This document shows positions 11,041 through 47,163 of a stretch of DNA of 64,000 nt, one piece after another. The translations under genes were made by a program, and so were the position numbers. Source of the DNA: an uncultured Candidatus Saccharibacteria bacterium (GTDB taxonomy: Bacteria; Patescibacteriota; Minisyncoccia; Phycocordibacterales; UBA9973); contig CAYYSG010000002.1 of the NCBI GenBank assembly GCA_964474375.1, positions 980 through 64,979 on the forward strand. The letters are read 5' to 3'. Below the pieces are notes generated by a model. The model was given only the letters and a program-made list of their open reading frames with translations, had not been told where the DNA came from and did no database searches. Every line of letters starts with the position of its first letter. Positions within the stretch are counted from its first letter, which is position 1.

Positions 11041-12423
11041 CTAATTTTTGAAACTTGTTTTTAAGTATACCACAAGCTCCGCAATTGGCACGCGGGTTTG
11101 CTCCATTGTGTCGCGGTCTCTTACAGTAACACACTGATCATTCAAAGTGTCAAAATCATAAGTTATACAGTATGGTGTACCAATTTCGTCTTGTCTACGA
11201 TATCTTTTACCAATACTCTGGGTTTCATCATACTGACACATGAATTCTTCGGACAATTCTTCAAAAAGAGAACTTGCTGGAATAGATAATTCGTCTTTTT
11301 TGGATAGTGGCAGTATTGCAACTTGTACTGGTGCAATATTTTTCGGAATGCGCATGACGACTCGTGTTTCGTCACCAACTATTTCTTCGTCATAACTCTG
11401 AGTTAGTATTGCTAATACTAATCTTCCGACTCCAATACTTGATTCAATGATATGTGGCAGGAAATGCTGTTTCTTTTCTTCGTCAAAATATTCTAATTTT
11501 GTACCACTATGAGTCTGATGCTGGGTCAAATCATAATTACCTCTGGCGTGGATACCTTCTAATTCTTTAAAGCCAAAAGGAAATTTAAATTCAATGTCGT
11601 AGGCTTCTTTAGCATAAAAAACTAAATTGTCATGTTTGTGCCAACGCAAATTTTCTTCTTTTAGACCTAAAGATAGTAAAGATTTCCAGCGGTAATCTTT
11701 AAGTGACTCATATTCAGCCATTTCATTTTCCGGACTTATGAAATATTGCATTTCCATTTGTTCGAATTCGCGAGTACGAAACACAAACTGACGTGCGGCT
11801 ATTTCGTTACGAAAAGCCTTACCTATTTGAGCAATACCAAAAGGTAATTTTACATTTGTTGTATCAATTACATTTTTATAGTTTACGTATATTCCTTGGC
11901 AGGTTTCTCCACGAAGATATGATTTGTTTTCGCCAGTGCCAGTGAAATCCCCCAGGTTGGATTCAACAAGCAAGTTAAATCTTCTGGCTTCTGTAAAATC
12001 ATCCATATTGTAACCATTCTTTTTGAGCGCGTCTTTATTGGACTGCAGAAGATTATTTATTTCATCTATGGTCATTTTTTCATCAGCTAATATACCAATG
12101 TCTTCCAATATGTGGTCAGCACGGACTCGTTCGTGAGTTTTTTTGTTTTCAATTAGTGGGTCTGAGAATCCTGACACATGTCCTGACGCTACCCAAATCT
12201 TTGGTGACATAAATATAGAACTATCTAGCCCAACAATATCAGGTCTTTTCTGAACCATACTTTTCCACCAATGTGATTTTATGTTGTTAGCCAAAAGTAC
12301 ACCCATTGGCCCGTAGTCATAAACCCCACCGAAACCACCATAAATTTCAGATGATGGGTATATAAAACCTCGTCTTTTAGTCAGATTGACGACTTTGTCA
12401 AATATGTCATTTTTCTCTTCCAT
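11041..12423 (-). CDS. glyQS: glycyl-tRNA synthetase (dimeric alpha2 type); start probably at MEEKNDIF (12423), not the ORF-track start 12468
   Basis: YPSSEIYGGFGGVYDYGPMGV class II motif; internal Met removes a 41-nt overlap with the upstream gene. Confidence 0.85.
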   Translation of the reverse strand: MEEKNDIFDKVVNLTKRRGFIYPSSEIYGGFGGVYDYGPMGVLLANNIKSHWWKSMVQKRPDIVGLDSSIFMSPKIWVASGHVSGFSDPLIENKKTHERVRADHILEDIGILADEKMTIDEINNLLQSNKDALKKNGYNMDDFTEARRFNLLVESNLGDFTGTGENKSYLRGETCQGIYVNYKNVIDTTNVKLPFGIAQIGKAFRNEIAARQFVFRTREFEQMEMQYFISPENEMAEYESLKDYRWKSLLSLGLKEENLRWHKHDNLVFYAKEAYDIEFKFPFGFKELEGIHARGNYDLTQHQTHSGTKLEYFDEEKKQHFLPHIIESSIGVGRLVLAILTQSYDEEIVGDETRVVMRIPKNIAPVQVAILPLSKKDELSIPASSLFEELSEEFMCQYDETQSIGKRYRRQDEIGTPYCITYDFDTLNDQCVTVRDRDTMEQTRVPIAELVVYLKTSFKN

Positions 12424-12427
12424 GGGG

Positions 12428-14365
12428 CTATTGTACCACAATGGCGTCACTAGAGGTACCGTTATCAATTCTGGTATTCAGGTTGCCATGCTGGCTTTTT
12501 ACGTCTTTATTTGAGAACAAATCAGTACCAGTAAAACGCAATGTTTGGAGTAATTCAGGCGAAGATTGAATTTGTGAAAGCGACGGGGTTATAGCTACTT
12601 GGAATTCACCAATTCGGGCTTGGGTTGTATTGCCTGCACCAGCAGCAACATTGCCCATGTTCCAAATTACTTCTCTTGTGTCCGGATTATAAGCGATGCG
12701 TTCTTCTCTGGTGACTTTACCTACCCAACGCACATAAAAAGGAAGCTTTGCGGTGTATCTAGCTCCTGTTATTTCGTTATGTGTATTTTCCACAGAAAGA
12801 GTTATTTGATAAATACTTTCATTAGCAACGACAGGAGGTATTGGACCTGATGCATGAATAACAGTTGCATCGATAGTTGGTTCTGTTGTAACTAATACAT
12901 TTGCGGATTCTATATTTTCTAGATTTTGAACAAGCAAACTAGTATCATCCGGTATACCACTAAATGACAACGATAGTTCAACCGATGGATCACGTACAAC
13001 TTTCGGACCGTCTATTGTCCGTGGCAGCACCCGAAAAGAAAAAGTAAGTCTTCCTTCAGTATTAGGCTGGATAATATTTAAGCCTTCCCTTGTGTTTTTG
13101 TCCCAGAATATTTCTTTTTTAACAGAATCATAGAATCCATCAACAGGTAGAATCGAAAACTCATCAAGTGCAGAACCTGATATTTTGACACGAAATACTG
13201 GGTCTATTACAGCACTACTGTATCTATTCCGATAGACAAGAGTTCCTTGGACATATGAGTCAGGTGCAACTGCAATAGTTTTAGCATTTTCACTACCGAG
13301 CAATATATAAGCATCTAGTAGTGGCCGAGCAATGGATAATACGTGGGCTTTTGAAACATAACTAGTTTTTATTGAAGTCTGGTCATCAGGTAATGGGACT
13401 CCTACTGTAAAACGAAATGATCTTTCGTCTCCTTCTTGGGACCCGAATCTACCTGTAATTACCAAGTCTTCGTAGTCGCCCTCCTTTTCGGTATTTAGGA
13501 CCCAAGTACTAACACCATAAGTAACTTCTCTTGAAACAGATTCCGGTGTAAAATCCCGAGGGTAAGCTACATGCAACAGTGATCCTGGTGGCAATGTTTT
13601 GGTATTCTGAGTAATCCGTGCACGCAAAGTATAAAGCTGTCCGGGTGCAATATCTTTCGGAGCATCGACTTCAACGATTACTGGGGACGAACTTATGGTC
13701 AAAGAACTCAAAGATGATTTTGTATAAGTCAGCGATGAGTCCGGCAAAGAATAATCAATTGTGACATTTATATCTTTTTTGCTACCTTGTTCACCATATA
13801 AAATAACGCTGATGGTTTTCGATGATTCAGCACCACTAGGTATATCACCTAGCTCTATTGTTTGCCTTTCAAAATCATCCCGTGATTCAGCTATGCTACC
13901 CCGGGGGTATTCTATTTCTGCATGTACGTTCGTCAAAGAAACATTATTCCTATTTGTTACAGTAATGACTACTGGTAATTCTTCCCCACCACGAGTAAAA
14001 GGTGCGGTCTTGATAGCAATATCAATATGCCTCGATACAAAATTTTCACGTGATTCAGAAAAAAACAATCTATACGTTGTATAAACCGCAGCAAAAAACA
14101 AAATTATAATAGAAAGAATAAAAAACTTTTTTGCAAAAGAATATCTGGATTTGGAAACCTTTAAATCCCCTATTGATGTTTTGGGCATTGGCGAGCGCAT
14201 TTTAAAAGAAGTGCCTCTTAATGGATGATTCTCTACAGTAGGCGCAGGTTTAGAAATACCGTACAATTCAGTTTCACTTTTTTCTATGAAATTTGGATTT
14301 TTATCATTTCCCTGATTTGGCGAATTCATGTGTTTATTATAACACAACAGCCATTCCATTTTCAT
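12428..14365 (-). CDS. membrane-anchored extracytoplasmic protein with CARDB/DUF11-like beta-sandwich repeats
   Basis: Single N-terminal TM (FFILSIIILFFAAVYTTY), repeated VxITVxNxxNxxLTNV-type segments. Confidence 0.45.
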   Translation of the reverse strand: MKMEWLLCYNKHMNSPNQGNDKNPNFIEKSETELYGISKPAPTVENHPLRGTSFKMRSPMPKTSIGDLKVSKSRYSFAKKFFILSIIILFFAAVYTTYRLFFSESRENFVSRHIDIAIKTAPFTRGGEELPVVITVTNRNNVSLTNVHAEIEYPRGSIAESRDDFERQTIELGDIPSGAESSKTISVILYGEQGSKKDINVTIDYSLPDSSLTYTKSSLSSLTISSSPVIVEVDAPKDIAPGQLYTLRARITQNTKTLPPGSLLHVAYPRDFTPESVSREVTYGVSTWVLNTEKEGDYEDLVITGRFGSQEGDERSFRFTVGVPLPDDQTSIKTSYVSKAHVLSIARPLLDAYILLGSENAKTIAVAPDSYVQGTLVYRNRYSSAVIDPVFRVKISGSALDEFSILPVDGFYDSVKKEIFWDKNTREGLNIIQPNTEGRLTFSFRVLPRTIDGPKVVRDPSVELSLSFSGIPDDTSLLVQNLENIESANVLVTTEPTIDATVIHASGPIPPVVANESIYQITLSVENTHNEITGARYTAKLPFYVRWVGKVTREERIAYNPDTREVIWNMGNVAAGAGNTTQARIGEFQVAITPSLSQIQSSPELLQTLRFTGTDLFSNKDVKSQHGNLNTRIDNGTSSDAIVVQ

Positions 14366-14888
14366 TTAAAACGTATTCGTACATTTTAATTTTCTCGGAC
14401 ACGGGCAACATACTGACATCAAAAGGTTGCTTTGTATAACCCAAAGACGTTAGTAATTTCAAAGCGTATTCATAGTAGATATTGTCTACATTTGATTCAG
14501 TAATCATGTTGTTTTCCAAAAAGTACGCCAGATTCTCAAGAACCCGATAAGCTTCGATACTTTCAACCTGACTCGGCAATAAATACATTACCAATTTTGA
14601 AAATCGAGCTAATACAAAATAGGCTTCTTTTTTGTGCATAACAAATCCTTGGTCAGAACTACGGATTTTCACTATTCGGTAGCCGGTGCGACCATGGACC
14701 ACATCAACTGATACATTCGCAAAACGCATCAAGAAACCCCGCATTTTTGAACCAGGTTTAGCGCTAGATATAGCTACAGCTTCAACTAGCCCATTTTCTT
14801 TGGAAAATAGTGTAATTCTTTTGTCGTACTCCGAACTATTTCGCAATTCTAAAATATACCCATTCCATGTGTATACATCGTATGCCAT
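14337..14888 (-). CDS. recO: DNA repair protein RecO (short form)
   Basis: N-terminal OB-fold pattern ILELRNSSEYDKRITLFSKENGLVEAVAISSAKPGSKMRGFL resembles RecO. Confidence 0.5.
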   Translation of the reverse strand: MAYDVYTWNGYILELRNSSEYDKRITLFSKENGLVEAVAISSAKPGSKMRGFLMRFANVSVDVVHGRTGYRIVKIRSSDQGFVMHKKEAYFVLARFSKLVMYLLPSQVESIEAYRVLENLAYFLENNMITESNVDNIYYEYALKLLTSLGYTKQPFDVSMLPVSEKIKMYEYVLNENGMAVVL

Positions 14889-14889
14889 T

Positions 14890-17800
14890 TTATTTTTTTA
14901 GATTAACAGATATCTCCATTTCACCAATTTTTACGATATCTATTTCAAGATTATTTAAGAATTCATATTCAGTTGCTGAAACTTCTTCTAGTAATTTATC
15001 TTTCCAAGAATTAACAAAATCCTGGGCAACATCACCGGCCATGAATTCGATTTTTATTAACTCTTTTGGTTTTAGTCCCATTAGTTTGCGTTTGTCCATA
15101 ATGACGCGGACTAATTCTCTAAAATTACCTTCGGACTTTAGTTCTTCTGTTAGCTCGGTATCCAGATGGATTTCCTTGCCTAGAGCTACAGACCGCACGT
15201 TAAGCTCGTCACACAAAATAGCAACATAATCTTCCGGTATTGGTTTGTTAACTGTTAAACTTTTCAAAGGCTGACGTACTGGGATATTTTTTTCCTTGCG
15301 CAGTGAATGTCCTATTGTTACAAATTCTTTTACTGTGTCCATGGTCTCAATAACTAGGTCAGATTCAGGGATGCTTATTTCTTTTGGCCATGATGAAAGA
15401 TGCACACTGGAAACATCATCTTTGGTTTTTAATTCTTGCCATAATTCTTCCGCAATAAACGGAGCCATTGGTGCGAATAATTGCGAAAGATTTTTCAAAA
15501 CGAAATACAAAGTCTGAAGAGATAAAGTATTACCGTTACGAATTAGATCACGCGAGCGTCTTAAATACCAAGTAGAAAGATCGTCCACGAAGTCACGGAT
15601 ATTTCTGGCAGGTACGAACAATGAATAATTATCCAATGATTCAGTGTTGGATTTTATCAAATTATTTAATTTAGCTAATATCCAAATGTCTAACGGGTTT
15701 TTTGATATTTTGTTTTCTTTGTAGTTCAGCTCATCTTCCCTGACTCTATATAGTTCATAGAAAGAATAGACATTGCGAACAAGGTTAAAGACTTTTTTGT
15801 TTACTTCGTCTACAGTTTTTTCGTCAAAGTTTTTACTGTCACCTGGCTGGTTAACTCCGTACATCCAGAAGCGCAATGTGTCCGCGCCGTATTTTTCAAA
15901 CATATCCCATGGTGATACAACGTTACCTTTGGATTTACTCATTTTTTGACCTTCTTTGTCTAAAATATGCCCCAAACAAATTACATTTTTATAGGCTTCT
16001 TTCCTGCCCAAAAGAGCCGACACAGCATGCAGTGTATAAAACCAACCACGTGTTTGGTCTACAGCTTCACATATAAAATCAGCTGGGAAATAAGTTTTGT
16101 CAGTTTGAAAAGGATATCCGTCTTGAGCAAACGGCATAGCTCCCGAGTCAAACCAAACATCCATGACTTCTTTTACACGTGTTAGTTTATTACCATCATT
16201 ATCATACACTGGGTATTCATCGAGATAAGGACGATGTAAATCCAGCTCGTATTCTTCATTATGAGGCAAAGGAGTAAAATCGATTTTTGTATGAGCACCA
16301 TTTAAAAGAGATTTCTTCAGATCTTCATTTGTATGTCTCCATTCCAAAGATTCTTCTTTGGTTAGACCTTTTGAAATAGATTCCAACATCCAAACACCTA
16401 CACCATGTGTAATTATTAGAATATTTTTATTTTTCAGATTACTATCCAGATCGTAAATAAAATTACCAAATCTGCTTCGGATATCGCTCATGGATTCGCC
16501 ACCCGGAGCTGGGCTCATAAAATGGTTTTTATAATCAACTGCAAAATCCCAATATTCACTCCATTTTTTACCGTTAAATGTACCCATGAAGACTTCGGCG
16601 ATTCTGTCGTCTGTGATTACGCTAGTGGCCGGCATACCTAATGAGTCAGCTATAATTTTTGCAGTTTCTTGTGTCCTAAGGAATGGTGATACATAAATCA
16701 AATCAAACTTTTGTTCTTTAAGAGTTTCTAGTGCCTGGTTGATTTGTTTTATACCTTCGGGGGTTAGAGAGTCATCGTCGTCTTCTTTGGAAGACGCGAT
16801 CCGGTCTTCTAGATTAGCCATCGTTTGACCATGACGCATAACCGTATATGTGTTACCAGACTTTTGAGTATGGTTTTTTAGTTCATCCCGATTTGAAAAA
16901 ATGTATCTTTTGCCAGATTCATCTTCCCATACTGGTAGTGGTGTACCCCAGTAGCGTTCGCGGGATATTGCCCAGTCTTTGACTTCACGAATCCATTCAC
17001 CGAACCGGCCTTGGCCAATATGGTTTGGTTCCCAATTTATGAAATCGTTATTCATTACTAATTCATCGCGCAATTGACTCATACGGATATACCAAGAATC
17101 CCGCGCGTAATAAATAAGCGGAGTAGAACAACGCCAACAATGCGGGTAACTGTGTTCGTATTTTTCTTTTTTAAATAAAAGACTGCCGGACTTTCTGTTA
17201 GCTAAATCTTTGATTATATCGATTGCTACTTCTTCGTCTTTTACAAACCTGTTAGACAAGAAATCTAGATTGTCCAAAAAAGAACCGGCTTCATTTACTA
17301 AATGGTATTTAGGTAGGCCTAGTTTGTTACCTAGGTCAAAGTCGTCCTGTCCATACATGACAGCCGTATGAACAACCCCTGTACCATCAACCGCTGTTAC
17401 GAAATCCGCTGGATACATTTTAAAAGCCTTTTCTTTTGATTCAACATAAGCTGGCAAATCATTGATACTGTCTTTTAAAAATGGATATAGTGGTTCATAC
17501 GTAAGACCAACTAGCTTCCCGCCGGCAATTTCCTCTTGCACTGAATATTCACCTTCTAGGATACTGAGTCTGTCTTTTGCCAAAATAAAATATTCGCCAT
17601 TTAAAGCTACTTTTACATATGTCATTTCGGGGTTCACAGCCAAAGCCACATTGCCGGGTAATGTCCACGGTGTTGTAGTCCATGCTAATACAAAAGTATT
17701 TTCTTCACCTACTAATTTAAATTTTGCAGTGACAGACAGATCTTTGACATCTTTGTACCCTTGAGCTAATTCGTGTGATGACAAGGCCGTACCACACCTA

Positions 17801-18345
17801 GCGCACCATGGGACAATACGATAATCTTTATACAATAAATCCTTCTTTTCTACTTCACCAAGAATACTCCACAGTGATTCAATGTATTCTGATTTGTAAG
17901 TTATATAAGGATTTTTCAAATCAACCCAATAAGCACTGCGGTTTGTGAACTTTTCCCATTCGTCGATATAAGTCCAGACGCTTTCACGACATTTTTTATT
18001 GAATTTATCTATTCCGTATTCTTCAATTTGTTTTTTGGAAGTTAGACCCAGTTCTTTTTCAACTTGCAGTTCCACTGGCAAGCCATGTGTATCCCAGCCA
18101 CCTTTGCGGCGAACATGATAGCCTTGCATGGTTTTATAACGCGGAATAGCATCTTTAAAAGCCCGCGCCTCTAGATGGTGAATACCAGGTCGTCCATTAG
18201 CTGTTGGCGGTCCATCATAAAACACGAATTCGCCATTCGGTGAATCCTTCTCTAAAGATTTTTCAAAAATATTATTCTTTTTCCAGAACTCTATTATGTC
18301 TAATTCTTTTTCATTATTTGTTTTGTTTTGCTTTTTTTCTTCCAT
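14890..18345 (-). CDS. ileS: isoleucyl-tRNA synthetase carrying an inserted histidine-phosphatase (PGAM-like) domain
   Basis: DGPPTANG, WCARCGTAL, TTTPWTLP, WAISRERYWGTPLP, KMSKSKGNV; residues about 497-697 show RHGQT...SPFLRTQETA...ITHG His-phosphatase motifs. Confidence 0.85.
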   Translation of the reverse strand: MEEKKQNKTNNEKELDIIEFWKKNNIFEKSLEKDSPNGEFVFYDGPPTANGRPGIHHLEARAFKDAIPRYKTMQGYHVRRKGGWDTHGLPVELQVEKELGLTSKKQIEEYGIDKFNKKCRESVWTYIDEWEKFTNRSAYWVDLKNPYITYKSEYIESLWSILGEVEKKDLLYKDYRIVPWCARCGTALSSHELAQGYKDVKDLSVTAKFKLVGEENTFVLAWTTTPWTLPGNVALAVNPEMTYVKVALNGEYFILAKDRLSILEGEYSVQEEIAGGKLVGLTYEPLYPFLKDSINDLPAYVESKEKAFKMYPADFVTAVDGTGVVHTAVMYGQDDFDLGNKLGLPKYHLVNEAGSFLDNLDFLSNRFVKDEEVAIDIIKDLANRKSGSLLFKKEKYEHSYPHCWRCSTPLIYYARDSWYIRMSQLRDELVMNNDFINWEPNHIGQGRFGEWIREVKDWAISRERYWGTPLPVWEDESGKRYIFSNRDELKNHTQKSGNTYTVMRHGQTMANLEDRIASSKEDDDDSLTPEGIKQINQALETLKEQKFDLIYVSPFLRTQETAKIIADSLGMPATSVITDDRIAEVFMGTFNGKKWSEYWDFAVDYKNHFMSPAPGGESMSDIRSRFGNFIYDLDSNLKNKNILIITHGVGVWMLESISKGLTKEESLEWRHTNEDLKKSLLNGAHTKIDFTPLPHNEEYELDLHRPYLDEYPVYDNDGNKLTRVKEVMDVWFDSGAMPFAQDGYPFQTDKTYFPADFICEAVDQTRGWFYTLHAVSALLGRKEAYKNVICLGHILDKEGQKMSKSKGNVVSPWDMFEKYGADTLRFWMYGVNQPGDSKNFDEKTVDEVNKKVFNLVRNVYSFYELYRVREDELNYKENKISKNPLDIWILAKLNNLIKSNTESLDNYSLFVPARNIRDFVDDLSTWYLRRSRDLIRNGNTLSLQTLYFVLKNLSQLFAPMAPFIAEELWQELKTKDDVSSVHLSSWPKEISIPESDLVIETMDTVKEFVTIGHSLRKEKNIPVRQPLKSLTVNKPIPEDYVAILCDELNVRSVALGKEIHLDTELTEELKSEGNFRELVRVIMDKRKLMGLKPKELIKIEFMAGDVAQDFVNSWKDKLLEEVSATEYEFLNNLEIDIVKIGEMEISVNLKK

Positions 18346-18464: not shown

Positions 18465-18657
18465 TATAAAAAAACTCGTCCACATACAACAAAATTAATT
18501 GTTATATAAGGACGAGTTTCACTCGTGGTACCACCTTAATTACTTCTCATTTGCTGGGTTCTACTGATTTACCGCCCGCTGTAAGCGAGGTAAAATTTCT
18601 TCCCAAAGCGTGCCTTGTAAAATACAGACTCGGGGCTGATAACCCCTATAACGCTTA
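18465..18657 (-). promoter_or_regulatory. T-box riboswitch leader of ileS (T-box sequence at 18522-18541, terminator stem 18474-18481/18510-18517, U-tract 18465-18473)
   Basis: Minus-strand AATTAAGGTGGTACCACGAG closely matches the T-box consensus (AAUUAGGGUGGNACCGCG); terminator hairpin aactcgtcc...ggacgagtt plus 7 T follows; ATCA candidate Ile specifier about 30 nt upstream of the T-box sequence. Confidence 0.7.
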
Positions 18658-18664
18658 TATATAC

Positions 18665-18693
18665 ATTATACATCATTTGACAAAGATTTTCAA
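18665..18693 (-). promoter_or_regulatory. sigma70-like promoter of the ileS leader (TTGAAA-17 bp-TATAAT)
   Basis: Read on the minus strand; gives a leader of about 310 nt, typical for T-box. Confidence 0.55.
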
Positions 18694-18951: not shown

Positions 18952-19377
18952 TTATTTCTTACCAGTAGAGCCGAATCCTGCATCGCCTCGTGAGGAATCA
19001 GCTAAATCTGTTACTTCTATAATTTCTGGAGTTGAGACTTGTTGCAACAATAACTGACATATCTTATCGCCTGCTTCAAAAGAATATTCTTCGTTAGAAA
19101 GGTTTATTAAACCTATAAATATTTCACCTCGATAGCCAGCGTCAATTACTCCGCCAATGGTTTCAATTCCAGCCTTGGACGCAAGAGATGATTTACCCCA
19201 AGCTAGCAAAACATAACCGTTAGGTATTTCAGCGCTGAAACCAACTGGTACGAATTTCCTCTCGCCTGGAATTAACTTAAAAGAATCTGGGGTATAAATA
19301 TCCATACCTGCATCCCCAGCATGCGCATAGGTAGGCAACTTTGCATCATCTTTTAGCCTCTTAATTTTGATTTGCAT
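18952..19377 (-). CDS. dut: dUTP diphosphatase
   Basis: AGDAGMDIY, RGEI, C-terminal RGDAGFGSTGK motifs. Confidence 0.9.
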   Translation of the reverse strand: MQIKIKRLKDDAKLPTYAHAGDAGMDIYTPDSFKLIPGERKFVPVGFSAEIPNGYVLLAWGKSSLASKAGIETIGGVIDAGYRGEIFIGLINLSNEEYSFEAGDKICQLLLQQVSTPEIIEVTDLADSSRGDAGFGSTGKK

Positions 19378-19417
19378 ATAAATTGTATTCTATAAGAAAT
19401 GAGCGTAAAATAAAAGC

Positions 19418-19942
19418 ATGAATAATATACATCCACTACTAGTGCATTTCCCTGTTGCACTACTGTCTTTTTATGCAGTTTTAGAAATAATATCTTTTAA
19501 AAAAGTTCGATCTATTTTTTGGATATTTTATGTAAAAGCAGTATTAGTTATAGGTGGTTTTATTGGTGGTTTACTTGCTTCAAGTAGTGGCGAGGCTATT
19601 GAACACAACTTCCCTATGAAAGAAAATTTGATTGAAATCCATAGCTTTTGGGCTGGAACAACGAATGTAATTTTTGGAATTATTGCTGTAGTTTATTTGA
19701 TAGTTTGGATACACAAAAGCAACATCATAAAACTATTACCGGAAACAGTAATGGGTAAAATTTGGCGTATGAAAGTAATGGTGGCGGAGAAGATTCTTTA
19801 TGCAAGATCAATGATGCTAATATTAGCCATGGCTGGAATAATAGCTGTTACTATTACTGGTGCGCTAGGTGCAAGCATAGTCTACGGACCAGAAATAGAC
19901 CCAATAGTTAAATTCATCTATACAAAATTAATCGGTGTATAA
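19418..19942 (+). CDS. membrane protein (DUF2231-like, HPLLVHFPVAL N-terminus)
   Basis: 174 aa, 4 TM helices. Confidence 0.45.
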   Translation: MNNIHPLLVHFPVALLSFYAVLEIISFKKVRSIFWIFYVKAVLVIGGFIGGLLASSSGEAIEHNFPMKENLIEIHSFWAGTTNVIFGIIAVVYLIVWIHKSNIIKLLPETVMGKIWRMKVMVAEKILYARSMMLILAMAGIIAVTITGALGASIVYGPEIDPIVKFIYTKLIGV

Positions 19943-19954
19943 ATAAATAATAAA

Positions 19955-19979
19955 ATGTGCAACACCGGGTGTTGCACAT
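19955..19979. terminator. bidirectional terminator (atgtgcaacacc g ggtgttgcacat)
   Basis: Perfect 12-bp stem between convergent genes. Confidence 0.6.
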
Positions 19980-19992
19980 TTATAAAATAACT

Positions 19993-20595
19993 TTATAGAT
20001 TTTTTTCTATTTCTTTCCAGATCTGATCAGCAATTACCGCGCGATCTTGATTTGCATTTATAATAGTCCAGTTCAAATCGTTGCCAAGTTCAAGGTGAAT
20101 TTTGCGAATTTTGTTTGTTTTTTCATCATCAGTCTCAAAACGATGACCAGACTCTATACTTTCTAAGTATCGATTTCCATCTAATAGCACTGAAATATCC
20201 GGCTCTATTAAACCCTGATTTATTTCAAGAAGAAAATCTTTTTCAAGACCATCGCCCATACCATACGCGATGCCGGTACCTGTATACATTTCTGCAATAA
20301 TAATATCAGTGTCAGAAAGTAGCTCTTCAAGTCTAGGCTCAAAATCTTTTCTATTTTGTGCACATAATTCTTGTAACTGTTTTGCGCTTAGATTTTCTGG
20401 ATTACCTTGTTTCAGTACAGCATGTATCTGAGGACCAGTAGGCGCAAGATCATAAATAGGATACTTTAACATTTTAAAACTTAAACCCTGAGTTATTAGT
20501 CTCTTTTCTAGGATTTCCATTTGAGTCGTTTTACCAACGTTAGTTACACCCATTATTGTTACTAGCTTGCCTTTGTTTTTAGATAATTTATTCAT
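19993..20595 (-). CDS. thymidylate kinase-like P-loop nucleotide kinase
   Basis: GVTNVGKTTQ Walker A (Tmk-type GKTTQ), about 200 aa; lies in the dut / nrdAB gene neighbourhood. Confidence 0.5.
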   Translation of the reverse strand: MNKLSKNKGKLVTIMGVTNVGKTTQMEILEKRLITQGLSFKMLKYPIYDLAPTGPQIHAVLKQGNPENLSAKQLQELCAQNRKDFEPRLEELLSDTDIIIAEMYTGTGIAYGMGDGLEKDFLLEINQGLIEPDISVLLDGNRYLESIESGHRFETDDEKTNKIRKIHLELGNDLNWTIINANQDRAVIADQIWKEIEKNL

Positions 20596-20638
20596 AATAC
20601 TTTTTTGTGAGTATACATCAAATAATAATTACAGCAAA

Positions 20639-21019
20639 CTATGCAGCTATGGATTCTGTTGTTTCAGAATATAACTCTTTTAATTCAGACATTATTTCAC
20701 TCCGACTTATATCTTTGTTTTTAATCTTTTCCACAAGCCTGTTAAATTGAGCAACATAGCCAGGATAAAGTTCATCTACTTTATCACTATTGTATTCCAT
20801 TCCTTTGTCTTGATAGTATTCGTCGAACTTTTTAATATCGTAACCTTCAATTTTTTTAAAAAAGTCCTCATCACTTAGTGCACTAAGTGACGCCAGTCTT
20901 TCAATAGCAGAAAATTCATTATAAGCATCCTGAACTAGCATTTTGTAATGAAGATCATCTTTGTTATCCAAAGACGTATCTTTATTTGTTTCTAGCCTAA
21001 TTTTAGGATTATTTTCCAT
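20639..21019 (-). CDS. hypothetical acidic protein
   Basis: 126-aa ORF, no motif. Confidence 0.4.
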   Translation of the reverse strand: MENNPKIRLETNKDTSLDNKDDLHYKMLVQDAYNEFSAIERLASLSALSDEDFFKKIEGYDIKKFDEYYQDKGMEYNSDKVDELYPGYVAQFNRLVEKIKNKDISRSEIMSELKELYSETTESIAA

Positions 21020-21021
21020 AA

Positions 21022-21831
21022 TTAATTATCTTCAGATTCTATTAATTTTATTGCTTTGTTCATATCATCCGGCAAAGGTGCAATATAACGCACGGTTTTG
21101 CCAGTTGTTGGGTGTTTGATAGTTATGTCTTCCGCATGCAGGGCTTGGCGTTCCATACCAAACATTTTCGGGATATAAGATGCATAAAGCTGGTCACCAA
21201 TAATTGGGTGCTGGATGTATTGCATATGTACACGGATTTGGTGTGTCCGCCCTGTTTCTGGGTATATGTCCACGATACTAACACTGTAAGTCTGCCCATC
21301 ATCGGGACCAGTGGTTTTACCTGACCTAAGAGCCATGTAGCGAGTTACAGCTTCTCTTTTTTCACCACGTGCATGCACACCAGCTGCCCATTTGCGGATG
21401 TCTTGGTTGGACCGACCAATGGGTTCTTTTATGATACCCCGTGGTGCTCGAAATGTACCCATAACAATGGCTTTATAGTGCTTCTTTACTGTATGGTCCT
21501 GAAACTGACTTTTTAAAGAGTCATAGGCTTCGGCAGTTTTTGCTATTACCATGACTCCGCTAGTATCCCGGTCCAGCCTATGCATAATACCCGGACGTAG
21601 TATGACCTCGCCTGTTTCTAGTGTTAGTGGTTCTCCTATGAATTTCATTTCAGGTCTTTCTTCTAGCAATATTTCAGAAAGAGTTTCAAACTTGGCTTTA
21701 CCGTCAGGGTGCACAGTCAGTCCAGCGGGTTTGTTGATAACGATAATTGAGTCGTCTTCGTGGATTATAAGGTTAGCTAATTTCATAACCCTACTATAGC
21801 GCGATTTCGGATATTTAAAAAGCCCTATCAA
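21022..21831 (-). CDS. RluA-family pseudouridine synthase
   Basis: HRLDRDTSGVMVIAK catalytic motif. Confidence 0.8.
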   Translation of the reverse strand: MIGLFKYPKSRYSRVMKLANLIIHEDDSIIVINKPAGLTVHPDGKAKFETLSEILLEERPEMKFIGEPLTLETGEVILRPGIMHRLDRDTSGVMVIAKTAEAYDSLKSQFQDHTVKKHYKAIVMGTFRAPRGIIKEPIGRSNQDIRKWAAGVHARGEKREAVTRYMALRSGKTTGPDDGQTYSVSIVDIYPETGRTHQIRVHMQYIQHPIIGDQLYASYIPKMFGMERQALHAEDITIKHPTTGKTVRYIAPLPDDMNKAIKLIESEDN

Positions 21832-21849
21832 ATAGGACTTTTTAAATGG

Positions 21850-22857
21850 TTATTTATCTCCTTCTTCTTCTTTTTTACTACTGTGGCCAGATGCATCCAC
21901 TTCGTAACTAGTATTTTGAGCTTCAAAAAAGTTTACAAGCTCATAAACATCGTTTGCTGTGGACATCCATTTAGCAGGATTAGTTACATTGTAGTGAGCA
22001 GGCAGACCTAGTTCTTCTAAACGTCTGTCAGCTATGTATTGTACGTATTGGTTTACATACTCAGCATTCAGCCCTAGTATTCCACGTGGGAACAAATCTT
22101 TGTTATAAGCAACTTCTAAATCTACTCCTTCGATAATTATACTTCGAATTTCTTCAGCGAATTCTTCTGTCAGTAAGTCAGGGTTTTCTTCCAAGGAATT
22201 CATAATTAGCCCGATTCCGAATTTAAGATGTAGTGATTCATCACGAACAACCCAGTTAATCATTGAGCCCAAGTTGCGTAATAAATTACGTTGACGGAAT
22301 GACAGCGCCACCATGAATCCAGTGTAAAACCAAACACCTTCCATAACGATATTAGTTGCAACCAGGTTACGGATGAATTCTTTTTTACCTTCAATAGTTT
22401 CGATGTCTAAAGACATCTCGGTCATGCGCATTAAATACTTTTCAATGAAAGCTTCTTTCTTTTTCATTGAGTCAGTATTCAAATGAACCTTGTAAACTTC
22501 TTCGCGGTCCAGTGGAAATGTTTCGAGTACGTATTCAAAAGCCACACAGTGGTTAGCTTCTTCCCACATTTGTTTTGCTAAATACAAATGAGCTTCAGGG
22601 GCTTTGACATAAGGATACACGCCCAAAGCTAGTGACCTATTCACAATTAGTTCAGCTGGGTTAAAGAATGCCATCAGGAATGACAATGCATGCTTTTCAT
22701 CATCGGTCATTTTTTTCCAGTCAGCCAAATCTTCACCAAGAGCAATTTCGTGCGGGAACCAAGTATTTCTGACAGCTTGTTGATACAAATCATATGCCCA
22801 CTTGTGGTGCATTGGGTGCAAGGTTGTATCTGCTGGTGCGGGTTTTCCTAATAACAT
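21850..22857 (-). CDS. nrdB: ribonucleotide reductase class I beta subunit
   Basis: Ferritin-like di-iron fold residues (EEANHC, RDESLH), length 335. Confidence 0.85.
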   Translation of the reverse strand: MLLGKPAPADTTLHPMHHKWAYDLYQQAVRNTWFPHEIALGEDLADWKKMTDDEKHALSFLMAFFNPAELIVNRSLALGVYPYVKAPEAHLYLAKQMWEEANHCVAFEYVLETFPLDREEVYKVHLNTDSMKKKEAFIEKYLMRMTEMSLDIETIEGKKEFIRNLVATNIVMEGVWFYTGFMVALSFRQRNLLRNLGSMINWVVRDESLHLKFGIGLIMNSLEENPDLLTEEFAEEIRSIIIEGVDLEVAYNKDLFPRGILGLNAEYVNQYVQYIADRRLEELGLPAHYNVTNPAKWMSTANDVYELVNFFEAQNTSYEVDASGHSSKKEEEGDK

Positions 22858-22881
22858 ATGTAATTATTTTATATGATTAAT

Positions 22882-25419
22882 TTACTGACAGCCTTCACAA
22901 GTGAGAGCATCTTGCGGGTCAACAGGAGCATGAACTTTGACTTCGGGTTTGTCGTTATGAGCTGGTACAACAACATCAGAATCAAGTGAAGTGACAACAG
23001 GGTCAACGGATTCTATATTCATAACAGGACTAACTGCTTTCATTTTAAGAGCGGCGAATCCGACTTTACCTAGAGACTGCGATTTGTTTACAGACACAGT
23101 ACTTTGCTCAGCAGTGTGACGTGGCTTCATATGAAGATAATAAGTAGTCTTCAAACCTTTTTGCCAAGCAGTAGTATAGACTTTTGAAACTTCATCAATA
23201 TCACGACTTTCAAGGTACATATTACGCGATATTGCTTGGTCTACCCATTTTTGAGCTCTGGCTGCAACTTCAATAAAAGCAAATGGTGACACAGAGAATG
23301 ATGTTTTGTAAATGTGCTTTATTCTGTCGGGTATTTCGTCTATTTCACTAATGTCTCCTTGGTTAGCAAGTATCTTTGACGAAACTTTGTCCCAAAGATT
23401 TTCTTTTTTCAAATCAGCAATCAGGTTAGGATTTACTTCCAGATATTTACCAGATATTTTGTTACGTGAGAACATTTGCGCAAAACGTGGATCAATACCA
23501 GGAGAAGTTCCTGCTACTAGTCCAATGTTGGCATTCGGTGCAATAGCCATAACAGTAGCGTTGCGGACTCCATTTTTGACCTTTCTCCGGAGATTATCCC
23601 AATCAAGTATAGGGTTAACTAATGCTGAGACTTTCGGAACTGTTAGTTCTTCCCCACGCTCGTATTCTAGAACTGCAAGTGTGTCTATTGGTACCATACC
23701 ACGGCTCCAACCAGACCCAGGGAAATTCTTATAAGCTCCACGCTCATTTGCTAAGTTAGCTGATTCGTCTATTGCGCAGTATGATATGAATTCAAAAACC
23801 TTGTCAGCTATTTCAAAAGCATCTTTGTCTTCATATGAAAAACCTAGTTTTTCTATTGTATCAGTGAATCCCATTAGTCCTAGTCCAACTGCTCGGTTTT
23901 CACTGTCAGCTTTGACGGCTTCGGCAATAGGTGGACGGTTAACTTCGATAAGGTTGTCGAGCTGTCTGATAGCTAGACGTGTTGATTCTTCGAGTAGCGG
24001 CCAGTTTATTTCCTTACCTTCTAAATGTTTCGGTAGGTTGATAGATATTAGGTTACAAACAGCGACTTCATCTTTACTAGTAGGCAAAGTAACTTCGGTA
24101 CAAAGGTTAGAACAATGAATTGTACCAGTATTGTTGTTTAGTGCACGAGCATTGATTGTGTCTTTCCAAGTTAGCCATGGGTGTGAAGTAGTCTCAAGCA
24201 TCACAATGATGTTTTTGTATTGCTGAGAAGCTGGGAGTTTTGTAAATAACTTTATTTTACCTTCATCGGCCATTTGGCAGTATTCGTTGTATCTTTTTGA
24301 AAAAGCATCACCATATAGTTCGTTCAAATCTTTTACTTCTTTTGGGTCAAATAGGTACCAGTCTTCCCCTGCAGTTACGCGACGCATAAATTCGTCGGAT
24401 ATAAATACAGCAGTATTTGCAGTACGAGCACGACGATAGTCATCCCCTGCATTTTGTTTCAAATCTAAAAAGTCTTGGAAATTAAGATGCCAGTTTTCCA
24501 TATAGAAACACAGTGCGCCTTTTTTCTTACCGCCACGCTGTACCGCACGAACCGCAGAGTCAATGATATGCAAAAATGGGATAGGGCCACTAGATGCTGT
24601 GTTGTTAGATGACAGGATCGAACCTTCGGCACGAAGCTTTGTAACAGATAGCCCAATACCACCGGTGGCTTTGGATAGAAGCAATACATCAGAAACTGTT
24701 TTACCGATGTGTTCCATGTCATCATGAACTTCCATAAGATAACAATTAGAAAGTGATGACCTGTTAGTACCAGCACCAATGTTAGTTGACCCAGCTGAAA
24801 GATATTCCAGACGTGACATTTTGTTATAGAATTTCTCCGCCCAAGCATTTGGGTCAGATTCTTTTACTGACATAGCCATAGCAATACGCATCCAGAAATA
24901 TTGAGGAGTCTCCACAGGGTGACCATCCTCACCTTTGGTAAGATAGCGGTTCTGCATAGAAGAAAGTCCTGAGTAGTAATATAGTTCGTCTCTTTCGGTA
25001 TTCAGCACAGAAGCCAAACGGTCCAAATCAAACTTTTCACCCAAGTCTTTGTGGATCATATTGTTTTCGACGCCTTCTAGAATGAACTTTTTAAAGCCAT
25101 TTTTGTGGACATTTATGAAATCTGCCTCGGAATATGAGCCTAATACTCTTTTATATATGACTTTTAGAAGTAGTCTGGTTGCGATTTTGTCGAATTCGAT
25201 GTCTTCTTGAGCATTCTGCAGAGATGCATTAATAGTAGCAATGTCTAATTCATCAGTCGTGATACCGTCATACAAAGTAAGTTGTGTTTCAGAAGCAATC
25301 TGCATTACCTTGGAAGTAATATCAGTAAGACCCATTGCCGCACGTTCAATAGAGCGGTTTATATGGTCAGCATTGAACGGTTCTTTTGTACCGTCACGGT
25401 GGGTGATGTTAATCGACAT
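22882..25419 (-). CDS. nrdA: ribonucleotide reductase class I alpha subunit with N-terminal ATP-cone
   Basis: ATP-cone ITHRDGTKEPFNADHI, catalytic core (NLCTEV), C-terminal Cys pair. Confidence 0.85.
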   Translation of the reverse strand: MSINITHRDGTKEPFNADHINRSIERAAMGLTDITSKVMQIASETQLTLYDGITTDELDIATINASLQNAQEDIEFDKIATRLLLKVIYKRVLGSYSEADFINVHKNGFKKFILEGVENNMIHKDLGEKFDLDRLASVLNTERDELYYYSGLSSMQNRYLTKGEDGHPVETPQYFWMRIAMAMSVKESDPNAWAEKFYNKMSRLEYLSAGSTNIGAGTNRSSLSNCYLMEVHDDMEHIGKTVSDVLLLSKATGGIGLSVTKLRAEGSILSSNNTASSGPIPFLHIIDSAVRAVQRGGKKKGALCFYMENWHLNFQDFLDLKQNAGDDYRRARTANTAVFISDEFMRRVTAGEDWYLFDPKEVKDLNELYGDAFSKRYNEYCQMADEGKIKLFTKLPASQQYKNIIVMLETTSHPWLTWKDTINARALNNNTGTIHCSNLCTEVTLPTSKDEVAVCNLISINLPKHLEGKEINWPLLEESTRLAIRQLDNLIEVNRPPIAEAVKADSENRAVGLGLMGFTDTIEKLGFSYEDKDAFEIADKVFEFISYCAIDESANLANERGAYKNFPGSGWSRGMVPIDTLAVLEYERGEELTVPKVSALVNPILDWDNLRRKVKNGVRNATVMAIAPNANIGLVAGTSPGIDPRFAQMFSRNKISGKYLEVNPNLIADLKKENLWDKVSSKILANQGDISEIDEIPDRIKHIYKTSFSVSPFAFIEVAARAQKWVDQAISRNMYLESRDIDEVSKVYTTAWQKGLKTTYYLHMKPRHTAEQSTVSVNKSQSLGKVGFAALKMKAVSPVMNIESVDPVVTSLDSDVVVPAHNDKPEVKVHAPVDPQDALTCEGCQ

Positions 25420-47089: not shown

Positions 47090-47091
47090 TG

Positions 47092-47163
47092 TGCTCTCAC
47101 TAGGAATCGAACCTAGATTTTGGGTACCGCAAACCCATGTCCTATCCATTGAACGATGAGAGC
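47092..47163 (-). tRNA. tRNA-Arg, anticodon GCG as hand-folded (no encoded CCA)
   Basis: 72 nt; acceptor GCTCTCA/TGAGAGC, D-loop AATGGATA, anticodon loop TTGCGGT, T-loop TTCGATT; hand-folded cloverleaf. Confidence 0.75.

Follow-up and report, generated by a model that had tools for sequence, protein, structure and literature searches.

A predicted histidine-phosphatase domain embedded in the isoleucyl-tRNA synthetase of Patescibacteria

The ileS locus and its encoded synthetase

We analyzed a 64,000 bp stretch of DNA (hereafter referred to as the window) from an uncultured bacterium deposited as Candidatus Saccharibacteria (assembly GCA_964474375.1, contig CAYYSG010000002.1, positions 980 to 64,979), focusing on ileS, the gene for isoleucyl-tRNA synthetase (IleRS), and on a histidine-phosphatase (HP) domain that interrupts it. 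Window positions 14890-18345 on the minus strand form one uninterrupted open reading frame (ORF) of 1151 aa, the product of which is identical to a protein in the NCBI database (P0112). Pfam assigns tRNA-synt_1, Anticodon_1 (PF08264) and DUF5915 (PF19302) to this protein, and places a His_Phos_1 match between the two halves of tRNA-synt_1. The gene is organized as follows, in part by comparison with insert-free IleRSs of the candidate phyla radiation (CPR):

14890-18345, minus strand: ileS ORF, encoding a 1151-aa type-2 IleRS with an embedded phosphatase domain (stop codon at 14890-14892)
16927-18345, minus strand: aa 1-473, with the Rossmann first half, CP core, CP1 editing domain, CP2 and the WAISRERYWGTPLP motif
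16870-16926, minus strand: aa 474-492, CP3 first arm, EDESGKRYIFSNRDELKNH, counterpart of the CxxC half of the zinc knuckle
16264-16869, minus strand: aa 493-694, inserted histidine-phosphatase (PGAM-like) domain, delimited by the gap in PDB alignments and by alignment with insert-free CPR IleRSs
16162-16263, minus strand: aa 695-728, CP3 second arm, HNEEYELDLHRPYLDEYPVYDNDGNKLTRVKEVM, leading into the beta-strand DVWFDSG, with the CxCG half of the knuckle lost
14893-16161, minus strand: aa 729-1151, with the Rossmann second half, anticodon-binding domain and DUF5915 C-terminal domains

The class I signature of the window IleRS is GIHH (aa 54-57; nt 18175-18186, minus strand). Among 118 aligned IleRS relatives, H56 and H57 never vary and G54 is conserved in 90% or more, so the whole clade appears to carry GIHH. 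This G/AXHH form is natural in IleRS2, the type-2 enzymes, where it is associated with mupirocin hyper-resistance and function is kept (PMC10485003). The CP1 editing motifs WTTTPWT and GTGVVH are found at aa 222-228 and 321-326, WAISRERYWGTPLPVW at aa 458-473, DLHRPYLDE at aa 702-710 and DVWFDSG, the amino-acid pocket strand, at aa 729-735, with KMSKS (aa 801-805) and DQTRGWF both located in the second Rossmann half. KMSKS, WTTTPWT, GTGVVH and DVWFDSG are likewise invariant among the 118 relatives. The protein thus combines the IleRS2 class I signatures (the G/AXHH variant and KMSKS), the IleRS2 form of CP1 editing (a Thr-rich motif and GTG-x-VH) and the IleRS2 C-terminal organization (Anticodon_1 and DUF5915, no C-terminal zinc-binding domain), and its best PDB matches are IleRS2 enzymes; the isolated T. 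thermophilus editing domain (1wk8) is also among the matches. P. megaterium IleRS2 (PDB 8C8U/8C8W) and T. thermophilus IleRS (1ILE) are collinear with it over the whole length (E 1e-235 and 1e-218), sharing the CP1 editing motifs, KMSKS, Anticodon_1 and DUF5915. Judged from its sequence, the gene looks fully functional as the organism's working type-2 IleRS, and an AUC triplet in a T-box-like leader (see below) lends indirect support to its isoleucine specificity.

The insert is a branch-1 histidine phosphatase domain

A first-pass annotation of the window had proposed that a block of about 200 aa at 16255-16857, equivalent to aa 497-697, is an intact histidine phosphatase retained in the mature enzyme. 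The motifs it quoted lie in ileS where it placed them, and a profile search bears out the assignment, with a PF00300 score of 109 bits against a cutoff of 21.7 bits. The insert contains the RHG motif, second Arg, second His and acidic donor of His_Phos_1:

16318-16842, minus strand: Pfam His_Phos_1 (PF00300) match, aa 502-676 (E 3e-31)
16828-16836, minus strand: RHG motif, with R504, nucleophile H505 and G506, invariant in relatives
16675-16677, minus strand: R557, second catalytic arginine, in SPFLRTQETA (aa 553-562); Arg in 269 of 270 domains, with 1 gap
16594-16596, minus strand: E584, putative general acid, in DDRIAEVFMG; Glu in 244 and Asp in 24 of 270 domains
16405-16407, minus strand: H647, second catalytic histidine, in ILIITHGVG (aa 642-650); His in 266 of 270 domains, with 3 gaps and 1 Tyr

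These counts refer to 270 aligned domains from 267 proteins, a set that includes 50%-identity cluster representatives 30-43% identical to the window insert. The R-H-R-H core is intact in every domain that covers both histidines (255/255), and position 584 is acidic in 268 of the 270. The RHG motif opens an RHGQT segment (aa 504-508, nt 16822-16836), and the 118-120 close IleRS relatives show no variation at R504, H505, G506, T528, G531, S553, R557 and H647. Since divergence is quicker in the insert than in the remaining IleRS (mean identity 40% vs. 62%), we read the retention of this catalytic set as the outcome of selection on the active site.

Structure prediction with AlphaFold2 (AF2) for the insert alone, based on a 65-sequence alignment, yielded a model with a predicted local distance difference test score (pLDDT) of 94.3 and a predicted template modeling score (pTM) of 0.91. 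A Foldseek search of the PDB with this model returned solely histidine-phosphatase enzymes (probability 1.00, E ~1e-13, template modeling score 0.7-0.8), among them PspA, HFP, CobC, PhoE, GpgP, TIGAR and dPGMs, at 19-24% identity, and the predicted structure has the PGAM-like alpha/beta fold. PspA/iPSP1 (4IJ5), the riboflavin-pathway enzyme HFP (9MMH), CobC (6NRU), PhoE (1H2E) and GpgP (4PZ9) share both this fold and the R-H-R-E-H residues with the insert; unlike it, the characterized branch-1 phosphatases are free-standing enzymes with metabolite substrates, and their specificity-determining cap region cannot be confidently aligned with that of the insert. On this evidence the insert is a complete and genuine branch-1 histidine phosphatase domain that is probably active, and the reading of it as intact rather than as a degenerate remnant holds, with the R-H-R-(Glu)-H set invariant in relatives.

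Two other identities were considered and rejected. The dPGM/GpmA enzymes are about 230-250 aa long, with an ERHYG-type motif after the general acid and extra residues that bind 2,3-bisphosphoglycerate. The insert has the short, ~190-aa form, reads AEVFMGTFNG at the ERHYG position and has phosphatases rather than GpmA as its closest structures; within the histidine phosphatase family, its place is among the short phosphatases. An intein is countered by the PGAM fold obtained with AF2 and Foldseek, by the absence of a Hint-family Pfam match and by the residue that follows H695-N696, which is Glu in the window protein and Glu, Asp, Lys or Gln in relatives, not Cys, Ser or Thr. Since there is neither a Hint domain nor a nucleophile after HN, the domain is expected to stay in the mature IleRS, in agreement with the first-pass annotation.

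The insertion splits the CP3 zinc knuckle

Alignment with phmmer against the PDB matched aa 3-492 of the window IleRS to residues 3-477 of P. megaterium IleRS2 (8c8w) and aa 695-1053 to residues 480-847, and T. thermophilus IleRS aligns around the insert in the same way. Because the 8c8w alignment continues across the gap, the ~200 aa constitute a clean insertion matching nothing in the reference IleRSs, a result well outside chance expectation. The segment is thus not a normal IleRS subdomain, being absent from both references at this position, and lies inside CP3, between the equivalents of P. megaterium residues 477 and 480. At the same site, insert-free CPR IleRSs carry a CxxC...CxCG zinc knuckle, and their alignment with the window protein puts the HP domain between its two halves. 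The knuckle cysteines are present in T. thermophilus, P. megaterium and insert-free CPR IleRSs, and also in some insert-bearing relatives (e.g. P0176), but in the window protein other residues stand in place of all four (ED-ESGK ... D-NDGNK). CP3 is a peripheral subdomain that joins CP2 to the second half of the Rossmann fold; in T. thermophilus it has a zinc motif, and no two solved IleRSs share its topology (PMC7191050).

The AF2 model of the full-length protein has a pLDDT of 88.8 and a pTM of 0.79, with values above 90 in the junction blocks. This junction confidence suggests that the HP domain is joined to IleRS by ordered connections rather than by floppy linkers. The junctions themselves (SGNxY and PHNE) are conserved among relatives.

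Distribution across Patescibacteria

HP-bearing IleRS is a lineage-wide architecture, not one unique to this genome. PF00300 is present in all of the best 120 IleRS homologues (120/120), which are 1126-1211 aa long, 55-76% identical to the window protein and carry the depositor names Nomurabacteria, Paceibacterota/Pacebacteria or "Patescibacteria group". Conversely, 108 of the best 150 His_Phos representatives retrieved for the insert are IleRSs or IleRS fragments. A junction-pattern scan of one genome per GTDB species, with junction alignment A2 as the query, gave a confirmed match in at least 597 species genomes, so that the insertion recurs across Patescibacteria; a survey of related reduced genomes had been suggested in the first-pass annotation. 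In the best 80 of these matches, both the phosphatase C-terminus and the junction are covered at every locus (80/80). The same 80 loci come from Nomurabacteria, Paceibacteria, Parcubacteria, Taylorbacteria, Zambryskiibacteria, Wolfebacteria and Minisyncoccia, and some bear the depositor label Saccharibacteria.

We found no description of an HP-bearing IleRS in the searchable full-text literature, where absence is not proof of absence, nor in a 2026 survey of 96,219 IleRS domain architectures; the combination of PF00133 and PF00300 is already machine-annotated in public databases. To our knowledge, a phosphatase embedded in the catalytic body of an aminoacyl-tRNA synthetase (aaRS) and conserved across a bacterial class is new. 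We know of no characterized branch-1 histidine phosphatase that is part of an aaRS and, among bacterial aaRSs, of no additional catalytic domains other than editing hydrolases. The latter, CP1 of IleRS, ValRS and LeuRS and INS of ProRS, are ancient and universal ester hydrolases that clear mis-acylated tRNA. They follow the same design as the HP insert, an autonomous hydrolytic domain retained in a loop of the catalytic fold, but the HP insert is a phosphatase, lineage-restricted and recently acquired from a neighboring gene. Another histidine phosphatase grafted onto a core component of tRNA biogenesis is that of yeast TFIIIC tau55 (Tfc7), a lineage-specific domain that is dispensable for partner interaction (PMC3799434). 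The tau55 case differs in being eukaryotic, in having the domain at the N-terminus of a transcription factor and in stemming from an evolutionarily unrelated event.

Phosphatase domains at other IleRS sites and in other fusions

Two further IleRSs, P0378 (1087 aa) and P0328 (1379 aa; locus L096, 4034-8173), carry two HP domains each, at sites unlike that of the window protein. The first copy of P0378 lies inside the second turn of the zinc knuckle, and its second copy between "MPYA..YPF" and "ADFIAEG". In P0328, CP3 is uninterrupted; one copy occupies the same "MPYA..YPF"/"ADFIAEG" site, in the loop before the PADFIAEG strand, and the other the loop where the anticodon-binding helices begin. 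The contig encoding P0328 resembles an ordinary CPR contig. If confirmed, these two proteins would indicate repeated, independent entry of HP domains into IleRS.

A more divergent arrangement was seen in P0351 (1066 aa), an IleRS relative with an IS200-type Y1 transposase domain in the CP1 region in addition to a phosphatase insert, and with a GNAT acetyltransferase in place of the anticodon-binding domain. This may be a disrupted or chimeric gene.

The same HP subfamily is also fused to TsaC (Sua5/YrdC), which makes threonylcarbamoyl-AMP for t6A. The fusion is rare, comprising four clusters (P0368 and P0379-P0381; loci L092 and L093), and in one genome it adjoins genes for CCA-adding enzyme, TGT, Q_salvage and TruD. 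Other partners of TsaC in CPR genomes include a DNA_binding_1/MGMT C-terminal domain, TruB, 2H/CPDase, Nudix, GNAT and a methylpurine glycosylase. With four clusters only and so many unrelated partners, TsaC-HP was downgraded from the strong "Rosetta stone" link for which it had been considered.

Origin from an operon neighbor

Among stand-alone proteins, those most closely related to the insert come from the CPR and are 189-200 aa long. Five of them (P0005, P0015, P0016, P0017 and P0018) are encoded in a common operon with argS and ileS, in the order AA_kinase - argS - HP - (0-3 small genes) - ileS - recO, followed by genes for a CLIPPER/DUF7619-like protein and then a class II aaRS. HP and ileS overlap by 8 nt or lie 2 nt apart in three of these operons. 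The gene of a sixth homologue (P0004) overlaps the end of argS with no ileS after it, and more distant HP homologues show no linkage to aaRS genes. The operon-encoded phosphatases (for example P0016, and P0017 from Ca. Staskawiczbacteria) are 31-38% identical to the insert and share with it an NxY-x3-RHG (RHGQT) N-terminus, a C-terminal helical extension and the catalytic residues. They differ in being separate proteins, and their partner IleRSs (934-971 aa) have no insert and an uninterrupted zinc knuckle.

Downstream of the fused gene, the window retains the same order, ileS(+HP) - recO - CLIPPER-like homologue - class II aaRS:

14337-14888, minus strand: recO (RecO_N), conserved downstream operon partner of ileS, syntenic with loci L081-L088
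12428-14365, minus strand: 645-aa protein, CLIPPER/DUF7619-like homologue after recO; tblastn with the "CLIP" protein of L088 matches 12632-14050
11041-12468, minus strand: class II aaRS (tRNA-synt_2b and HGTP_anticodon), in the same position as in L088

Upstream, argS directly precedes ileS in about 47 of the best 80 insert-bearing loci. A neighbor-joining tree of HP domains, crude and without support values, places all sampled fused inserts (28/28) in one clade, the sister of which is a stand-alone clade containing all of the operon-linked genes. The most parsimonious scenario is that, in the ancestor of a large group of Paceibacteria, a phosphatase already co-transcribed with argS and ileS moved into the CP3 loop of the latter.

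No Pfam family matched the 645-aa protein (12428-14365), which has a hydrophobic N-terminal segment and homologues after recO in many CPR genomes; its ORF begins within the end of recO and runs into the start of the class II aaRS gene. The region upstream of ileS in the window (18952-25419) encodes dut, tmk, nrdB, nrdA with an ATP-cone and an RluA-type pseudouridine synthase. In the window genome and its closest relatives (L001-L004), this cluster of deoxynucleotide-metabolism genes takes the place directly upstream of ileS where most relatives have argS.

Possible function of the embedded phosphatase

The interpretation that we favor, with somewhat better than even confidence, is that the tip of CP3 carries an active HP phosphomonoesterase whose job is tied to the tRNA-charging machinery. 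The domain would hydrolyze a phosphomonoester through a phospho-His505 intermediate, and this reaction would be coupled to tRNA charging rather than to unrelated metabolism. We infer the coupling because the phosphatase was an operon partner of ArgRS and IleRS before the fusion, and because HP domains occur at several IleRS positions in different lineages and occasionally on TsaC. ArgRS, IleRS and TsaC are alike in using ATP to form an acyl-adenylate with release of pyrophosphate (PPi), and ArgRS and IleRS both handle the tRNA 3' end.

Three kinds of substrate appear possible, each of them tentatively and to about the same degree. One, an attractive candidate, is a phosphate-blocked tRNA 3' end (a 2'/3'-phosphate or 3'-pyrophosphate), brought in by IleRS and in need of removal before aminoacylation; another is a nucleotide or by-product of adenylate formation (PPi, AMP or another NMP, pAp or an alarmone-type compound); the third is an unrelated small metabolite. 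A phosphoprotein, IleRS itself included, is an improbable fourth. A tblastn search with E. coli pyrophosphatase (Ppa) found no match in the window or the related loci; with 64 kb of sequence this negative carries no weight, and it was dropped as evidence. Phosphate-blocked tRNA ends arise from ribotoxins, from 2',3'-cyclic-phosphate processing and from toxSAS-type pyrophosphokinases. The toxSAS toxins pyrophosphorylate the CCA end of tRNA and thereby block aminoacylation (bioRxiv 10.1101/2021.04.30.441581; PMC11559606). A more speculative extension, to which we give a low probability, is that IleRS is a two-step "repair-then-charge" enzyme, in which the healed tRNA end would be aminoacylated by the same polypeptide; the stand-alone operon phosphatase would then serve ArgRS and IleRS in trans. 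Such an enzyme, if real, would represent a new class of aaRS quality control, acting on the tRNA end instead of the amino acid. Should the domain act on a blocked tRNA end or an alarmone-type nucleotide, aaRS biology would be tied to toxin and defense systems that target the tRNA 3' end.

Several observations weigh against a coupling to tRNA charging. The insertions at alternative IleRS sites rest on two singletons, each protein having been seen once; the TsaC-HP fusion is weak evidence, because CPR TsaC is fused to so many unrelated domains; and, in streamlined genomes, genes may share an operon for the sake of co-expression alone. Among solved structures, the closest are phosphoserine, alpha-ribazole phosphate, ARPP and glucosyl-3-phosphoglycerate phosphatases, at only 19-24% identity; such small-molecule neighbors offer no specific lead and would suit a metabolic role just as well. 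Most of the fused HP domains are acidic (pI 5.2-6, net charge -4 to -13), and this acidic surface, together with the metabolite-phosphatase neighbors, disfavors extensive RNA binding. CP3 is located before beta-strand 4 of the Rossmann fold, and published tRNA complexes report few acceptor-stem contacts with the catalytic domain and mention none with CP3.

The same structural neighbors and acidic surface are readily accommodated if the insert is a housekeeping enzyme (phosphoserine phosphatase-like or PhoE-like) acting on a small molecule, captured from the argS-ileS operon by a permissive CP3. The fusion would then only secure co-expression of a phosphatase needed in its own right, with no mechanistic coupling to aminoacylation. 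IleRSs do differ in the topology of CP3, which withstands the loss of its zinc site; the insert changes more rapidly than the IleRS core; and opportunistic fusions are many in the CPR, such as those of TsaC with DNA_binding_1, TruB, Nudix and GNAT. Simple capture accounts less well for an argS/ileS linkage kept across deep lineages and specific to this HP subfamily, or for an insertion that is internal, when overlapping HP and ileS genes would more readily yield an N-terminal fusion. Nor does it lead one to expect several entry sites in IleRS with two copies in some proteins, or junctions (SGNxY and PHNE) that are conserved and confidently modeled. We regard it as a possible but less probable explanation than an enzyme working for the charging machinery.

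A non-catalytic role appears unlikely. The PGAM fold could replace the lost zinc knuckle as a scaffold, dimerize IleRS, many PGAM-family enzymes being dimeric, or act as an allosteric regulator of IleRS that responds to a phospho-metabolite, in each case turning over little or no substrate. Stabilization of CP3 by the insert would suit the loss of all four cysteines in the window protein and the high confidence of the junction residues in the full-length model, and the two HP copies of some relatives would be consistent with a pseudo-dimer. The insert is nonetheless also retained where the zinc knuckle is, as in P0176, and a catalytic set preserved down to the nucleophile His and general acid, in 255 of 255 domains across 30-45% sequence divergence, is unexpected for a pure scaffold; because the catalytic residues are invariant, a purely structural role is improbable.

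An assembly chimera, an unrecognized intein or a selfish element that is spliced out or disrupts a pseudogene can be dismissed almost entirely: although the conserved S496 and H695-N696 that bound the insert superficially resemble intein termini, and P0351 has an IS200-type transposase domain elsewhere in its IleRS, the ORF is continuous, the IleRS catalytic and editing motifs are all intact, the intein reading fails as set out above, and the recurrence of the same architecture in hundreds of independent assemblies from many studies excludes an assembly artifact.

The aaRSs rank among the most thoroughly studied enzymes, and an active phosphatase in CP3 linked to tRNA charging would point to an unrecognized phosphate-dependent step in that process. 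At minimum, HP-IleRS is a clean natural example of an operon neighbor turned inserted domain, and it would open a core gene of the ultra-small Patescibacteria, most of them uncultured, to functional study.

A T-box-like leader upstream of ileS and genomic context

The region upstream of ileS contains a short element resembling a T-box:

18466-18660, minus strand: short T-box-like leader of ileS (RF00230, 35.4 bits, E 2.5e-6)

A hairpin at about 18632-18646 (minus strand; GGGG-UUAUCAG-CCCC) presents the AUC (Ile) triplet in its loop, followed by the T-box sequence AAGGUGGUACCACGAG and by a terminator hairpin with a U-run at 18466-18524 (minus strand). Stem I is drastically shortened, and the T-box sequence and antiterminator/terminator are well matched. 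The score lies below the RF00230 gathering threshold of 93 bits, so a standard Rfam scan misses the leader; the putative element may work like a T-box, while not being a canonical RF00230 member by score. T-box-like elements were found upstream of ileS in five of the eight relatives examined (L001-L004 and L016), and none was detected in the operons with a stand-alone phosphatase. A TATAAT box lies upstream of the leader at 18665-18670, with no properly spaced -35 box, and we claim no promoter.

Nearly every long ORF in the window is encoded on the minus strand, and the cumulative GC skew declines monotonically; the 64 kb therefore appear to belong to a single replichore in which gene-strand bias is strong. 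The GC content of the window is about 37%, and its only tRNA gene is a tRNA-Arg (GCG) at 47091-47163.

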